From a virus (Duplodnaviria > Caudoviricetes): a stretch of 64,000 nt of DNA. Position numbers and translations under genes: made by a program. The notes beneath the pieces were generated by a model, which saw only the letters and a program-made list of their open reading frames with translations, did not search any database and was not told the origin of the DNA. The stretch is taken from the IMG/VR virus record IMGVR_UViG_3300028591_000164, positions 17,948 through 81,947 of that record, one strand, 5' to 3'. Shown one piece after another: positions 6,001 to 28,604 of the stretch; the stretch's first letter is position 1; each line of letters starts with the position of its first letter.

Positions 6001-9000
6001 CGATACTAATTCTGAAGCATATAAAGAAGCAAGAAGTAAATATCGTGATTCAATTATTTAGCTAAATAGTCAAACTCGTGATGATGTTTTAAAGAATATT
6101 AATGCTGTAAAAGATGCTAAAATTGGTGATTAGATTAATATTTCTGATATTACTGATTTATTAGGTGATGGTTTAACTAATTTCTTAACAGCAGAACTTT
6201 AGGAATATGGTGGCGTTCTAGATAATGGTATATTAACTATTTAGGAAGGAGCCAATATTTATGGTTTGGCTACTAGACTTGCACAAGTGGCATAGGCAAA
6301 AGGAGCTATTTTAGAGAATGATGTTGTTGCCCTTGGAGACGCATTATAGACTGCTGTTAGTTAGTATGTTGATGTTATTACAAAAGCATTGAGTGGCGGT
6401 TTAAAAGGTGGAGATTAGAAACAATTAATTGATTTTGCTAAAAATTTTAATATTGAATTAGGCGCTGATGACTTTGTTGAAACGGCCAATGGAATGAAAT
6501 TAACTATTGACGCTGCGATAGAATTATATAACACTTTAAAATCAATTAAAGGTATAGATACTTCTTCCTTGTTCTCTGGTCTTAAGGATGCTATAATAAA
6601 ACGAGATTAGATTACTACAATGGACGGCATTATGGCGAAAATTGCGTCTATTAATAATCAAATAGCAGCACAAAAAGCCGCGACTGGAAGCGTTAATGCG
6701 GAACTAGAACGAGAATTAGAATTGTATAAAGAAATTGCTAATGAAGCAATGATGAATGATCCTAATAAATATAAATTTATGGATCAAGCATTACCAGATA
6801 AATTTTAGGGTCCATTAAATTATTGGGATGCAACAGAAAAAATGATGTAGACCATGATTTCAAGTGCTAAGAGTGGCTACATGGGCGTACAAGATTTTTA
6901 TAATATTGCCACCGAAATGGAAAACCTTGCTAAATTGTCTGGTAAAACCATGAGTTTTATGGGCGTTGAAATTGGTGAAGGTGCAATGACCGCGGCTGAA
7001 TTAGTAGAAAAAGGTTTTTCTAATTTAAAAGAAGTCAGTGGTAAAGGTGCTTAGATCAACCTTAAAGGATTGGCCGATATTGGATTAAATCTAGCTATGA
7101 GTTCTAAACAAATGGCCGAGGGCGTAGAAGATGGCATTCATGCTATGGCCCAATCTCAAGTTGATATGCTTGACGGTTTAATTGGTTTACTTGAGGCAAT
7201 TGTTGCTATGGAAGCTATTAGTGATGTTGACACTAATGGAGATCATACCTTAGATGTCAGTGAAATTTTTGAGGTTGAGGGCGAAGATAAATTAAGCGAA
7301 AAAATGACTAGTTTTGCTAGCAAATTATTGGAAGATATTGAGAAAAGTGAAGAACTAAAAAAAGAGTTTGAAGCTTTGAAGATTGGTCAATATAGTCTTT
7401 ATGAAATTATTAAAGATGCTGCTAGTGGCACAAAAGGTATTAAAATGGCAACAGAAGAATATACTAATCTTTGGAATGCCTTATATCAAACCGCATTAGA
7501 CCAAGATTTTGATGCTTCTGATTTAATAGGAATAGTATAGCAGCTTTATAAAAATGGTTTAAAAGATATAGAATATACATTAAAAGATGGCCGTAAAATG
7601 GTTATAAAAAATGGTCATATTTTAGTATAGACCGAAGATAAAGAATGGGTTACAGATGATGGTGAAAAATTTTCTAGTGCAGATGCTGCTATTGCCCATA
7701 TGGTAAAATTAGAAAGTAAAAAAGAAATTGAAGATTTTAATAAAGGAAAAGAATCTAAAGGCGTAACTATTGATGCTAATGGTGAAACCGAAATTACCAT
7801 CAATGGGCAAATATATAAATTACATGTTAATACTAATGAAGATGGTTCGTTCTCTATGGATGGTGTTGAAGGTAGTTTCAAAACTCCTATAGAATTACTT
7901 AGAGCATGGGTGCGACAAACTTTTAAAGATACTAAATTTGCCAATGGATTAACGCCAAATGATTATACTGATGAACAATTAGATATTATAATGGGATTCA
8001 AAGTAGTACCAAAAATTACAGGGACATATCAATTAGCGGAAGATTAGCGTAAAAAACTTCGTGAATTATTAAATGAAAAAGGTATAACTACTAAAGAAGG
8101 ATTTATTTAGAATAAAGAAGCATTATCTTTAGAATTAGGAGTAGAACTTGATGATGACTTATTTAGTAGTGATGAAGCTTTATAGTTGTTTGCTGGTGTT
8201 TAGGTAACTGAAGCTGATACAAGTCAATTGGAAGATGTTCATGTTTAGGGTATTGTTGATATAATTTCTGTTGAGGGGCTGGATAAAAAAGTTAAAGAAT
8301 CCGTCGCTTTGGCATTATAGAATAATGAAACTTTCGCTTAGATGGATGAGCGAATGCGCGCAGAAGGTGCCACAGAAACATAGCGCTTATAGGCAATAGA
8401 AACACTCACAAAAGTCCCAGGACGAACTCTAACGAGAAATGATATAGAGGCTTTATAGTTAAATGGTAATAATATTCTTCCATTATTAGGAGCTTCGGGA
8501 GCGTTTAATGGTGGCTATTCAACGGAATGGTATACTAGTCGAAGTCTTGATCCAACAATTGGCATGGGATTAAAATATACTTATGATGACAGAACTAAAA
8601 CTTATGGTATTTATAGAAAAGATATAGAAGCAGAAATAAGTGCTCATCAAGGCTATTATGATTAGCTTGGCGTGACAGCTGATAATTTTGTTGACTTTGT
8701 AAATTATTTTCAAGGTACACATATAGAAGATATGTTACGAACGATTCCAGGCTTTTCTACTCGTTTTTGGGGGACTCCATTATTTGATTTTGCTAAAAAA
8801 ATGGGATAGTAGCAGAAAAAAGAAAAAGCTGAAAAAGAAGGCATAAGCATTGGTAATTTAGAGGAACAGAAATATGATTTTAATAAAAGGAGCGTAATAT
8901 TAGCACAAACAAATGCGGCTGAACTTGCGGCAAATAACTCTGCTTAGGTTGCAACAGATAAAATTATGAATGAATATGCATAGATTGTTGCTAAAGTCGA

Positions 9001-23789: not shown

Positions 23790-23818
23790 ATTATAACAGA
23801 AAATGGATAAAAAGTCAA
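23790..23818 (-). promoter_or_regulatory. Sigma70/SigA consensus promoter
   Basis: TTGACT-17 nt-TATAAT upstream of the 23761 ATG. Confidence 0.8.
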
Positions 23819-23820
23819 AT

Positions 23821-23852
23821 AAAAAGGTGGGGCGATTTTATTTTTTCGCCCC
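23821..23852 (-). terminator. Intrinsic terminator after the nrdD-nrdG-FNT operon
   Basis: GGGGCGA...TCGCCCC stem followed by ACCTTTTT, overlapping the FNT stop. Confidence 0.6.
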
Positions 23853-24395
23853 AAATGTGTGTGGAGAAATAAGTAATCCACCAATAATATTGCCAAGCAA
23901 AATAGCTATCCAATTTAAACTAAATTGACCAGCAGCTAAGAAATAGAAAGCATCCGCTATACAGTGATTAAACCCAGCCGCGATGAAAGCAAATACGCCC
24001 AGTACAGTGATATATAGTGGAGTCTCTTTATATGTTGCTAATGTCATTAAAGCACCGCAACCGATACCTTTCCATAGCGCTATGGAGAAATCTTGTTGCG
24101 CTTTATTTTGTCCTATTGCCGCAGCGGCTTGTTTTGCTTCTGGTGAAGCAATGAGAAACATCACGGCGATGCCAAATAAATTAAATATCAAAATTAATAA
24201 ATATTCATACCATTTATATTGTTTAGTAAATAAATATTGAACTTTACCAGTAAATAAATTATATTGCATTAATCTGACCGCGCATAAGCCGCAGCTGAAT
24301 AATAATGCTCCAATTAATGGGCTAGGCGCCATTACATATAACTAGCACCCAAGTCCAATACATAAACCCGCGAATATAGAATTAATTATTAGCAT
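23838..24395 (-). CDS. Formate/nitrite transporter (FNT, FocA-like) channel, compact 185 aa (1 TAG)
   Basis: Extends upstream through one TAG to ATG 24395 (MLIINSIFAGLCIGLGCQ). FNT motifs GALLFSCGL...LFTG, KGIGCG, FIAAGFNHCIAD and GNIIGG; six hydrophobic segments. Confidence 0.82.
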
Positions 24396-24876
24396 TGTTT
24401 TTCTCCATATAAATTATTCTTTGATTAGAAGAGCCACGCAATGGTAATGTAGTATCGCGCTTATCTTGTTCATAGCGCCCATCAATTAAACAATCAATTT
24501 CTGATAAAATCTTATCAATAATATCAAGTTTTCTTTCTTTTAATTCTTCAAGCGTATATCCAGTCCAAACATAAACAATTAAATCTGGATAACGGCTTTT
24601 GCACCAACTAATTAAAGCGTCTACCGCGGCGAGATTTTCATCACATAATGGTTCTCCACCTAAAATACTTAAACGGCGTTCTACGCCATTTTTATGTAGT
24701 TTATCTATAACCGTACTTATAGTGTTAAAATTAAATTCTTCACCATAATTAAAGTCCCAAGCTTCTGGATTATGACAACCGGGGCAATGGAAGTGACATC
24801 CAGAAAAATAAACTGAGAGGGAGATACCGGGTGCTGCCGCGGTATCGTCCCAATATATACCAGCAATTTTACTCAT
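24382..24876 (-). CDS. nrdG: Anaerobic ribonucleotide reductase activating enzyme (radical SAM)
   Basis: FSGCHFHCPGCHNPEAW (CxxxCxxC), SILGGEP and LRGSSNQR. Confidence 0.95.
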   Translation of the reverse strand: MSKIAGIYWDDTAAAPGISLSVYFSGCHFHCPGCHNPEAWDFNYGEEFNFNTISTVIDKLHKNGVERRLSILGGEPLCDENLAAVDALISWCKSRYPDLIVYVWTGYTLEELKERKLDIIDKILSEIDCLIDGRYEQDKRDTTLPLRGSSNQRIIYMEKNNANN

Positions 24877-25030
24877 TTTTGTTAATTTCTGATGATATGT
24901 CTCTTAATACGTCTAATAAAAGACGAAAAGTTCCATCTGCATTAATAATTGATATATTATATTTATTGCATAAGTCAAATATAATTTTTACTTCATTTTG
25001 TTCTATAATTTCTGGAACATCTATCATCAT
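24869..25030 (-). CDS. Small hypothetical protein, 53 aa, between nrdD and nrdG
   Basis: ATG after a GGAGG RBS; open to TAA 24869-24871, overlapping the nrdG start. Confidence 0.5.
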   Translation of the reverse strand: MMIDVPEIIEQNEVKIIFDLCNKYNISIINADGTFRLLLDVLRDISSEINKNE

Positions 25031-25041
25031 ATTTTCCTCCA

Positions 25042-27312
25042 TTAATGTATATGTTTAACGCGGTCTTCTGTTTCTTTTTGTTTGCCCCAATTAAAAGCAT
25101 CTTTGTAAGAGCCAGTTAAATAACCAGTAACCCTACGTAGACGAGAAATATTTTTACTGCCACATTCTGGACAAGATTCACCAATTTCATCTTGATAGCC
25201 GCAATCATTGCACATGTCTAGTGGCACGTTTATCGCGAAATATGGTATGTCCTTATCCATCGCATAATTTACTATGGTTTCAAGCGCATCAATATTATTT
25301 TTTACACCAGAAGGAACTTCTACATATGTTATACATCCCGCACTGGAATAACCAGTTAATTGCGCTTCAATATCAATCTTATCAAAGATAGAAATATCGT
25401 GCCATACAGGAACATGAATACTATTTGTAAAATATTCGCGGTCAGAAACATTAGGAATTTCACCATATTTTGCTTTGAATTTTTTCATCGCTGTGTAGCA
25501 TAAATTTTCTGCTGGCGTATAATATACACCAAAGTTAAGTTTATATTCTTGTTTAAATTCTGCGCAGCGCGTTTTAAATAATTGCTCAATACGTTTTGCT
25601 AGTTCCATGCCTTCTTCAGTTGTGTGGTCTTTACCGATTAGAATTTGAAGCGTTTCAGCCAAGCCCAGTTGCCCGATAACAATGGTGCCATGTTTCAATG
25701 CTGAACGAATTCCTTCTTCTGGATGGTAGCCAAGCATTGTATGGTTTTCATACATAAATTTTGCTGACGCGGGAGACTGTTTACAAATCCATTCAAAACG
25801 TTCAAGAAGCATGTCTTTGGCTTCATGGATTTTTTTGTCTAATAGAAGCATAAAGTTTTCTACTAAATCCGCTTCTTTCATTATATAATCGTTTTTATCT
25901 AGCTTTTCTTTTACTTCCATTGCCAATGTTGGCATAATAATAGTTACTGGGCAAATATTGCCGCGGCCATCTTTTGTTTGTGGATTAACTCCCGGTTCTG
26001 CATTGATGTCTGCGCCATTTGCGGTTCTGCAACCCATTGTAGAGAAGTAAGTTTTTGGATCATTTATATCATAGCCAGCATTGCCACTCCAATCAACATT
26101 CGCGTAGTTTGGATAAATACGCTTGGCAGTAGATTCAAGCGCGAGGCGGAACAAATCATAATTTGGATCGCCAGGAGCACGGTTTATACCTCTCATACAT
26201 TGGAAAATACCGCACGGGAAAATAGGAGTCTTATGGAACTTCCCTACACCCTTTATTGAACCTTCAAGCAACGCTTTAATTACCATGCGGCCTTCGGGTA
26301 GCGTACAGGTTCCATAATTAATAGATGTGAAAGGCAATTGATTGCCGCTACGAGATTGAAGTGTATTTAAGTTATGATACATGCCTTCAACTGCTTGTTG
26401 AAGTTCACGCATAGTCATATCCATTGCATATTTATAAGCTTTTGTTGTCTTTGCAGTTTGCACTAAAGGAAGTATTCTTTCGTCAACTGTTAAATTATGA
26501 TAAGGCTCAATGGGCATTTTAGAAATATCTACATTTAAGAAATAATGATTTTCATTATCTTCTTCAAACCATTTTAGGCCATCTTTGAAGTGCTTCCAAA
26601 AACTTTTTCTTACATAAGGAACCATAGTCCAATCTAAATGAGTTGCTGAAACTCCGCCAAACTACATTAAAGATTGAAGCTAAAATATAACTGCTACAAG
26701 TTGGAAAGCAGTATTAATTGAATTAGCTGGACGAACATCTGTTTGTCTCGTATTAAATCCTTTGGCTAGTAAGTCATCAAATGGAATACTTAAACAGTTA
26801 TGCATTCCTACTGCATAAGCGCTTAAATCATGAATATAAATTTCATTATTTAAATGATTATTTCGCGCCATATCTGACATACAGAAATCAAGTGCATATT
26901 GTTTCATCATTTCGTCGGATGCTTCACCAACGCGGCCACCAAATGAATGCTCATCAACATTTGCGTTTTGATTTTGAACATTTTTTGCTTGGAGCTTTTC
27001 ACTAATTGAGCGAATAAACTCATCAGAACAAGAGCGCATTACGCCGCGCTTATAACGATAACGAATGTAGGCTTTTGCGGTTAATTTATCATATTCAGTT
27101 AAGTAATCTTCTACTAATTCTTGAATTTCTTCAACATCTAGCGGCCTATCCATTTGTGTTGCCACTTCATATACATTATCAGCAATTTTTTTACCATAAT
27201 CTGGAGTTTTTTGTGTAAAATGAACATCTTTATATGCTTTATTTATTGCTTCAACAATTTTTTGAGCATCAAAGTCTACATAATCTCCAGAGCGTTTTCT
27301 AATTTGTATCAT
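25042..27312 (-). CDS. nrdD: Class III (anaerobic) ribonucleoside-triphosphate reductase with ATP cone, 756 aa (2 TAG)
   Basis: Two track ORFs join in frame across TAGs at 26680 and 26662, giving VIF(Q)LQSLM(Q)FGGVSATHLDWT. Also HNCL, TMGCRT, Zn site CNDC...CPEC and glycyl loop RRVTGYL. Confidence 0.95.
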
Positions 27313-27528
27313 TTATTCTGGCCTCCCAGCATGTTTTTTTCCACAATATGGGCAAGTATCATCAACCCATACAAAATTATATCTAGCATCAAAATGCGGG
27401 CATCTGCTCTAATTAATGCGCATTTTTGCCTGAATTTCTTTTACTGTGCTTTTCTTTTCCATAGTTGCAAGCGCGATTTTTAATTCTTTATCCAATCGCT
27501 CTTTTTCTGCAATAATTTCTTCTATCAT
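27313..27528 (-). CDS. Small protein with CPH...CPYC motif, 71 aa (1 TAG)
   Basis: Manual translation MIEEIIAEKERLDKEL...IN(Q)SRCPHF...TCPYCGKK. Confidence 0.55.
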
Positions 27529-28604
27529 ATTCTCCAAACCCCCTTAGCAGATAGTGTTGTAAAATTATGATTAAATAAATCTTTTGCTGCGGGGTATTTT
27601 TCTTGTAATAAATTGCGTGCTTCTCGCGCCGGTCCGATTTTGCCGCTTTGCTAAACAAGAGTTCGCTCAGCCAAAGACTTATTTTTTTTAGAAGGCCCTT
27701 TGCTCCATCCTTCTACTAATTTAGAAAGATGAAATAGCGGGTCAACGTAGCCAAGAGATGGCTATTCATATTTAATTTTCAATGGGATTTTACAAGCCCA
27801 AAAAGAAAATAATATATTCATTTTATATATAAAATCTTCTAAATAAAACTTTGAATATCTAAAATCACCGCCAAGTGTAATAGACACATTAGAAGACTCT
27901 GTAATATCAGCCAAAAATTTATTTTTATAATTTTTTAACATATAATGTACTTCATCAAGTGGAATGTCCAAGTCAAGAATTATTTCATTTGCGCGACCCA
28001 TTTTTTCAATTCCACGTAAAGTAAAATACTATGTTAAAGTCTTACATCGTGCGGGATGGATAGTTAAAATTTTCGCGGGATTGCGTTCTGCTACTTTATT
28101 AAGAACTTCTTCCCATCCAGGATGAAATATATCTTTATCAAATATAAAAATACGTTTCTTTGTTTTTACTGGTGGAATTGGCAATACCTTGTCGCCCGCG
28201 AACATTCTATAATAACTATCATCCAATATATGTGTAATTACATGTGATTTAATTCCTTCTTGATATTTCTTTTTAAGTATTTCTTTATATATTGCTGGCC
28301 GCGGAATTGTGTAATCAACAATCTATTCTTCAAACGGAATATAATTTTTAGTAAAATTTGTGCCGCCAAAGATTATATTTGTTGCTTTTTTAAATGCATC
28401 AGGAACTTGAATTGGCTGTTCGCTTTCACTAAAAAAATATATTTTATCATAATTACTTAATTCAGTTTCATCTAAATCTATAAGGCGGCAGAAAATATTT
28501 CTTTCCGCCTTATAGTATGTTGCTAATTTCATTATTTCTATGTTAGGAATTAATTTTGTTATAGCAGAAGCGGAATAGAAATCATAATCAACGAGCCCAA
28601 TCAT
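27525..28604 (-). CDS. Hypothetical protein, 359 aa (>=4 TAG)
   Basis: Track ORFs 28323-28604, 28029-28226 and 27762-28001 share a frame and join across TAGs; ends at TGA 27525-27527. Confidence 0.7.

Follow-up and report, generated by a model that had tools for sequence, protein, structure and literature searches.

Why does a gut phage place a gene for a channel of the FNT family (PF01226) directly behind the genes of its anaerobic ribonucleotide reductase (RNR)? We addressed this question at positions 23,838 to 27,312 of a 64,000-nt stretch of DNA (hereafter the window), taken from an 81.9-kb virus record in IMG/VR (IMGVR_UViG_3300028591_000164) of a sheep-gut phage. The window has a G+C content of ~33%, and its matches in PHROG (DNA polymerase, RecJ, DnaB, topoisomerase II, a tail protein, and PhoH) confirm that it comes from a large phage. 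With TAG read as a sense codon, nrdD, a small open reading frame (ORF), nrdG, and a short FNT gene (mini-FNT) follow each other on the minus strand, where a first-pass annotation of the letters had placed all four. This nrdDG-FNT string is genuine and recurs in phages, forming an auxiliary module that joins an FNT channel to a class III RNR and that is apparently unpublished. As its role, we propose that the channel probably imports the formate that NrdD consumes in the synthesis of deoxyribonucleoside triphosphates (dNTPs).

The identity of the enzyme partner is supported by family models and by its residues. nrdD (25042..27312, minus strand) encodes a class III RNR of 756 aa with an ATP-cone, the glycyl-radical motif RRVTGY, and a C-terminal Zn ribbon (CNDC...CPEC), which scores 496 bits against Pfam NRDD and 491 bits against TIGR02487 (cut-off 326). 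Its activase NrdG, a radical S-adenosylmethionine (SAM) protein of 164 aa (24382..24876, minus strand), contains the cluster motif CxxxCxxC (CHFHCPGC) and scores 152 bits against TIGR02491 (cut-off 126). Formate is the reductant of T4/E. coli-type class III RNRs. Both marks from which NrdD had been assigned to this subtype are present, the second or bottom Cys being C173 (HNCL) and the finger loop being M426-G-C428-R (TMGCRT). Additionally, N452 aligns with N435 of Prevotella copri NrdD and with the Asn of T4 NrdD, i.e., it occupies the third-Cys position of thioredoxin-type enzymes on the sixth strand. Among solved structures, P. copri NrdD is the nearest (385 bits) and T4 NrdD comes next, while the thioredoxin-type T. 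maritima NrdD reaches 53 bits. The P. copri enzyme depends on formate in vitro, and its Asn435 replaces the third Cys of other types (PMC11226230). With subtype definitions drawn from PMC4493059 and PMC11226230, the window residues fit the NrdD1 (NrdDc-like) definition as summarised in PMC4493059; judged by this signature, the window NrdD is a formate-type class III RNR. Two residues past Asn452 lies Cys454 (25951-25953, motif GRGN-I-C-P), which is kept in ~90 lineage relatives and absent in P. copri, T4, and divergent NrdDs. In several relatives, a GIY-YIG/NUMOD homing-endonuclease gene resides inside nrdD (L001 132-3198; L078; L023; L numbers denote the loci compared below) or between nrdD and nrdG (L003, L005), which suggests mobile introns or free-standing endonucleases targeting the nrd operon.

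The channel partner is encoded by the last gene of the string (23838..24395, minus strand; 185 aa). It scores 88.6 bits against PF01226 (cut-off 34.6), covering profile positions 21-233 of 240, and falls short of the FocA equivalog models TIGR04060 (35.8 bits, cut-off 290) and PRK10805 (16 bits, cut-off 440). A database search with this protein returned 121 relatives, all of 107-248 aa. The AlphaFold model, computed with 34 relatives in the alignment, is of high confidence (predicted local distance difference test 94.1, predicted template-modelling score 0.89) and displays six transmembrane (TM) helices, with TM2 (26-42/48-55) broken at T49 and TM5 (127-140/145-155) broken at H144. Foldseek matches the model to HSC, FocA, and PfFNT with a probability of 1.00 and template-modelling scores of 0.79-0.85, HSC being the best. 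The pore is formed by F33, L37, L47, T49, K98, F137, H144, A147, and N169. These are the counterparts of F75, L79, L89, T91, K156, F202, H209, A212, and N262 in E. coli FocA and are kept across 154 family members, with T49, H144, K98, F33, L37, L47, and F137 invariant or nearly so. The motifs LFTG and FNHCIAD, already recognized in the first pass as holding the conserved Thr and His, contain the pore Thr and the pore His, respectively. In FocA, H209 and T91 are needed for formate uptake, and variants without the His export only (PMC11841067). The FocA position E208 adjoins this His. The phage protein begins at TM1, leaving ~37 N-terminal FocA residues unmatched, and has no counterpart to the N-terminal cytoplasmic helix with which FocA binds PflB, the long TM5-TM6 loop, and several shorter loop stretches. 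As modeled, the phage FNT is a complete but pared-down channel.

The genes are tightly packed. nrdD overlaps the small ORF by 1 nt, the small ORF overlaps nrdG by 8 nt, and nrdG overlaps the FNT gene by 14 nt. The FNT start had been said to overlap the nrdG end, and the FNT ATG at 24395 indeed lies 14 nt within nrdG, 7 nt past a GGAG; from this gene overlap, FNT translation may be coupled to that of nrdG. The small ORF (24869..25042, minus strand) spans 57 aa from its first ATG, which overlaps the nrdD stop by one base (TAATG), and 53 aa, the length given before, from the ATG behind GGAGG. It matches no family, and relatives at 65-68% identity were seen only in L008, L009, and L017, other relatives joining nrdD straight to nrdG. 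No pfl gene is present in the nrd-FNT operon.

The operon had been delimited to 23838-27312 with a terminator after the FNT gene, and the downstream end is borne out. Here, an intrinsic terminator (23817..23853, minus strand) consists of an 8-bp hairpin (UGGGGCGA/UCGCCCCA) with a 10-nt loop containing the FNT stop codon, followed by CCUUUUUAUUU. A consensus terminator scan missed the hairpin because of this loop; it was revealed by folding, which yields a G+C-rich stem at 23828-23853 ahead of the T run with -14.2 kcal/mol (z = -3.6). Moreover, a near-consensus promoter of the next gene (TTGACT-17-TATAAT with TG; 23790..23818, minus strand; scored 11/12) marks the end of the nrd-FNT unit. The upstream limit at 27312, in contrast, did not hold. 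A further ORF of 74 aa (27313..27537, minus strand), containing a coiled coil and one TAG, abuts the nrdD ATG with its stop, and thus the gene string continues upstream of 27312, with the transcription start probably lying upstream of nrdD. The 74-aa product has a C-terminal CxxC zinc-ribbon-like end (CPxF...CPYC) and is not a demonstrated member of the module.

All of these readings depend on the genetic code of the phage. TAG is read as sense throughout, as seen from 132 TAGs inside a single ORF of 4,271 aa. nrdD contains two in-frame TAGs (26662..26682, minus strand), codon 211 at 26680-26682 and codon 217 at 26662-26664. The corresponding alignment columns hold Gln (CAA/CAG) in 84/98 and 91/98 relatives, and we therefore read TAG as Gln; no tRNA genes were found in the window, and this assignment rests on the alignment columns. 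The FNT gene has one in-frame TAG at codon 18 in TM1 (24342..24344, minus strand), identified by reading frame and alignment. Translation table 11 breaks the region into NrdD pieces of 210 aa and 527 aa and an FNT piece of 164 aa. We considered a split NrdD and a truncated FNT as such and rejected them in favour of TAG read-through. Without read-through, the FNT would start at Met22 and lose TM1.

Is the pairing of channel and reductase peculiar to this phage? We compared the best 80 phage loci and the best 80 bacterial and archaeal loci, each ranked by likeness to the window. Among the 80 best IMG/VR mini-FNT loci, 33 have nrdD and/or nrdG adjacent to the FNT gene, while neither gene lies within 8 kb in any of the best 80 of at least 353 bacterial and archaeal matches. 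This comparison of phage and bacterial neighbourhoods, suggested as a check in the first pass, speaks for the first-pass interpretation. The NrdDs of the linked phage loci are between 27% and 87% identical to that of the window, and contigs with divergent NrdD encode phage-type topoisomerase, thymidylate synthase, and ligase. The genes are arranged in three ways: nrdD-nrdG-FNT, nrdD-FNT-nrdG (L029, L049, L058, L061, and also L199), and FNT...nrdD-nrdG (L069). Wherever the region could be aligned, the linked NrdDs all have the Cys-Arg finger loop (MGCR, once MRCR) and the Asn at the third-Cys position. In NrdD-centred loci, the FNT gene follows nrdG in ~19/30 close relatives (at least 76% identity, with room downstream).

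The FNT phylogeny, rooted with E. coli FocA and NirC, supports several origins of this linkage. The window FNT falls into a phage-only clade of 16 nrd-linked sequences, down to ~50% identity and with no cellular member, while other nrd-linked FNTs fall among bacterial FNTs. The nrd label changes eight times on the tree, and at least four of these changes are forced by well-supported branches. The approximately unbiased (AU) test against one clade of nrd-linked FNTs gives a log-likelihood difference of 165 (p = 0.0009), and a single inherited cassette is rejected. Furthermore, NrdDs of the 27% type and of the 68% type both occur as partners within a single FNT clade (L059 and L066 versus L067; L060 versus L034 and L047). 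From the tree, the AU test, and the mixed NrdD types within a clade, we conclude that the FNT-nrd pairing arose, or survived the replacement of a partner, on several occasions. The FNTs of Alistipes/Rikenellaceae (L086, L130, L133) nest inside a clade of nrd-linked phage FNTs.

What do the cellular relatives do? The bacterial and archaeal loci belong to gut and rumen Clostridia, Bacteroidales, Methanomassiliicoccales, and others. In 17/80 loci, the mini-FNT gene sits between purM and purN in the operon purC-purF-purM-FNT-purN-purO-purH-purD; these purine operons are found in gut/rumen Clostridia, with the FNT gene at ~8001-8580 of most loci (L081, L084, L101, L107-L111, L117, L122, L128, L134, L151, L152, L155, L160). 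A ZMP/ZTP riboswitch above the Rfam cut-off heads 7/9 of the pur operons tested, and this riboswitch reports a shortage of 10-formyl-tetrahydrofolate (10-formyl-THF). Further, 10 loci carry a formate-THF ligase gene downstream in the same orientation, and guaB (encoding inosine monophosphate dehydrogenase) is adjacent in four, the mini-FNT gene being directly upstream of it in L086, L130, and L133 (Alistipes/Rikenellaceae) and in L083. The mini-FNT is the only PF01226 gene in 5/5 bacterial genomes checked. Because bacterial members reside with ZTP-riboswitch purine operons and formate-THF ligase, they provide independent evidence that the subfamily handles formate in the inward direction; the operon context thus points to formate import by mini-FNTs. 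The link of the bacterial genes to formate-consuming purine and folate genes is thus shown, and we found no paper describing the purM-FNT-purN arrangement in ZTP-riboswitch operons.

Taken together, these observations suggest the following course of events. nrdD, the small ORF, nrdG, and the mini-FNT gene would be transcribed as the tail of one overlapping gene string, and NrdG would install the glycyl radical on NrdD. NrdD would then reduce ribonucleoside triphosphates, with one formate oxidised to CO2 per turnover, its use of formate as reductant being predicted from the subtype residues. The 185-aa FNT, possibly co-translated with NrdG, would insert into the host cytoplasmic membrane, presumably forming a pentamer as other FNTs do. 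Formate from outside, or formate excreted earlier, could enter via the His/Thr proton-relay route known from FocA. In an infected strict anaerobe, dNTP synthesis would then no longer be limited by the host's formate supply, which would be the benefit to the phage. We infer formate as the substrate, and uptake as the direction, from the gene context and the pore residues.

Several observations weigh against formate import for NrdD. FNT channels also conduct nitrite, hydrosulfide, lactate, and acetate, and the pore residues do not fix the substrate. At the FocA E208 position, the window clade has Asn (N143, 23967-23969) in place of the Glu seen in FocA, NirC, the pur-operon clade, and most other nrd-linked FNTs; this exchange could change proton handling or selectivity. 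In NrdD, the lineage-specific Cys454 lies two residues from N452. The uniform formate type of the linked NrdDs may carry little weight, depending on the share of this type among all phage NrdDs, and the bacterial comparison spans the best 80 of at least 353 matches. The FNT is also dispensable, being absent in ~11/30 close NrdD relatives with room downstream, and it is mostly missing beside NrdDs at 50-70% identity. As it is present in only part of the NrdD relatives, the FNT is an accessory gene and not a fixed one. Finally, about half of the phage mini-FNTs have no nrd neighbour.

Which other roles could such a channel play? Imported formate might mainly feed the one-carbon folate pool, where host Fhs would convert it to 10-formyl-THF and further to methylene-THF for purines and deoxythymidine monophosphate, and the position beside nrdDG would reflect a general nucleotide-metabolism block. 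The bacterial homologues serve exactly this pathway, as indicated by their purine operons, ZTP riboswitch, and fhs, and the phage cassette is flanked by genes for dUTPase, thymidylate synthase, and DNA polymerase. Yet the phage FNT gene overlaps, abuts, or separates nrdG and nrdD, a place that it retains across changes of NrdD type and of flanking genes; moreover, the phage loci showed neither fhs nor pur genes. As the main use of the formate we thus regard the folate pool as unlikely, although formate use by NrdD and by the folate pool are compatible with each other and may hold side by side. Alternatively, the channel might transport a different small anion or acid (nitrite, hydrosulfide, lactate, acetate) or operate in the outward direction, thereby tuning host pH, proton-motive force, or fermentation balance without feeding NrdD. 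Such a role would suit the chemical promiscuity of the FNT family, the hydrosulfide channel HSC as best fold match, the Asn at the E208-equivalent in the window clade, and the many phage mini-FNTs, about half, that lack nrd linkage. The sole published phage FNT that we found, whose gene lies beside nirA, is likewise interpreted as a nitrite transporter (PMC8115048). The neighbourhood, however, contains no nitrite or sulfide genes, and the protonatable His needed for FocA uptake, without which FocA variants are efflux-only (PMC11841067), is invariant. A role of this kind would also fail to explain why the channel was joined, repeatedly and independently, to formate-type NrdD and to fhs/pur genes, and we judge it quite improbable.

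The patchy distribution might also be explained by an FNT that is passenger cargo from hosts, with no selected function in the phage or with a non-transport role in the membrane (lysis timing, exclusion of other phages). It is present in some close relatives and missing from others, and the TAG in TM1 falls at a variable column. This TAG is, however, an ordinary sense codon in the phage, and the phage-only clade of 16 nrd-linked FNTs keeps every pore residue down to ~50% identity. As the pore residues are kept across such a divergent phage-only clade, long purifying selection within phages is indicated, and an idle passenger is very improbable. Import of formate for NrdD therefore remains the reading that we favor.

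The module has consequences beyond this phage. RNRs, thymidylate synthase, and dUTPase are known as phage auxiliary genes that raise the dNTP supply; the supply of a reductant via a channel, if true, would be a new type of phage auxiliary function. Attention is further drawn to an uncharacterised minimal FNT subfamily that is tied twice to nucleotide synthesis, and a 185-aa FNT without a gating helix would be a convenient minimal system for FNT transport studies. If mini-FNTs import formate, phage infection would touch the formate flow of rumen and gut. As a tentative and rather doubtful extension, the mini-FNT could be a dedicated formate importer that marks a dependence of nucleotide synthesis on external formate in many gut and rumen anaerobes and that was captured several times by large phages, which would turn infected cells into formate sinks. 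If so, infection would compete with methanogens and acetogens for interspecies formate in gut and rumen.

The literature search found no paper combining FNT, phage, and RNR, in agreement with the first-pass statement that no phage FNT-nrdDG module was known to have been described. Likewise, nothing relevant was found on FNTs with purine genes or fhs or on FNT subfamilies. Of 50,697 phage records in GenBank, tblastn with the FNT matched a single one, MT839063, an unannotated 4.6-kb human-faecal scaffold with no nrd gene; thus, the nrd-FNT module is essentially absent from deposited phage genomes.

Outside nrd operons, phage mini-FNT genes neighbour dnaK-dnaJ on very large contigs or a dicarboxylate symporter gene, or lie in unrelated contexts. 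The first group comprises 'viral' contigs of ~80-435 kb, in which the mini-FNT gene adjoins dnaK-dnaJ and an ADP-ribosylglycohydrolase gene (L025, L026, L028, L041, L043, L050, L051, L063, L064). A near-identical FNT is encoded in a Prevotellaceae genome (L108), and these contigs may be megaphages or misclassified bacterial DNA. In the second group, viral contigs of 130-200 kb (L030, L031, L040, L045, L048, L077), the mini-FNT gene lies ~1.7 kb downstream of the gene for a sodium:dicarboxylate symporter, a second transporter. The FNT frame of these contigs contains an in-frame stop, and they are therefore probably recoded phages, too.

How does the module compare with known systems? On the side of the enzyme, the formate-dependent class III RNRs of T4 and P. 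copri (NrdD/NrdG; PDB 1H78, 8P23) have the MGCR loop, the bottom Cys, and the Asn at the third-Cys position in common with the window, as well as the Zn ribbon and the glycyl-radical motif, and the ATP-cone is found as in P. copri. In contrast, no channel gene has been described with those operons, and the window NrdD has two TAG codons and Cys454. The nearest precedent for a phage-borne FNT is the focA-nirA pair of auxiliary genes in a cyanophage, known from a single scaffold of oxygen-minimum-zone viromes and read as nitrite uptake for NirA (PMC8115048). There, too, the FNT is co-transcribed with an enzyme that uses the anion, but that FNT is full-length, 86% identical to the host protein, and derived from a marine cyanophage (PMC8115048).

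On the side of the channel, the mini-FNTs in pur operons of gut Clostridia belong to the same short subfamily (~185-230 aa, 31-38% identity), have the same pore residues, and lie in operons that serve nucleotide synthesis at a step consuming formate. They differ in that the partner pathway is folate/purine synthesis instead of ribonucleotide reduction, and they are cellular, riboswitch-controlled, and have Glu at the E208 position. A further close system is FocA, which conducts formate in E. coli, Salmonella, and Vibrio and is encoded by the focA-pflB operon (PDB 3KCU, 3KLY, 3Q7K, 9G49; FNT family PF01226, TCDB 1.A.16). Both channels adopt an aquaporin-like fold of six helices in which TM2 and TM5 are broken, with the central Thr/His, the vestibule Lys, and the Phe/Leu constriction rings, and both genes adjoin those for a glycyl-radical enzyme and its radical-SAM activase. 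The phage protein, however, is 100 residues shorter, lacking the N-terminal helix (PflB gating) and the long TM5-TM6 loop; it is phage-encoded, requires TAG read-through, and scores far under the FocA equivalog cut-off. While PflB produces formate, the phage partner NrdD would consume it, and consequently the net flow of formate through the phage channel is expected to be directed inward.

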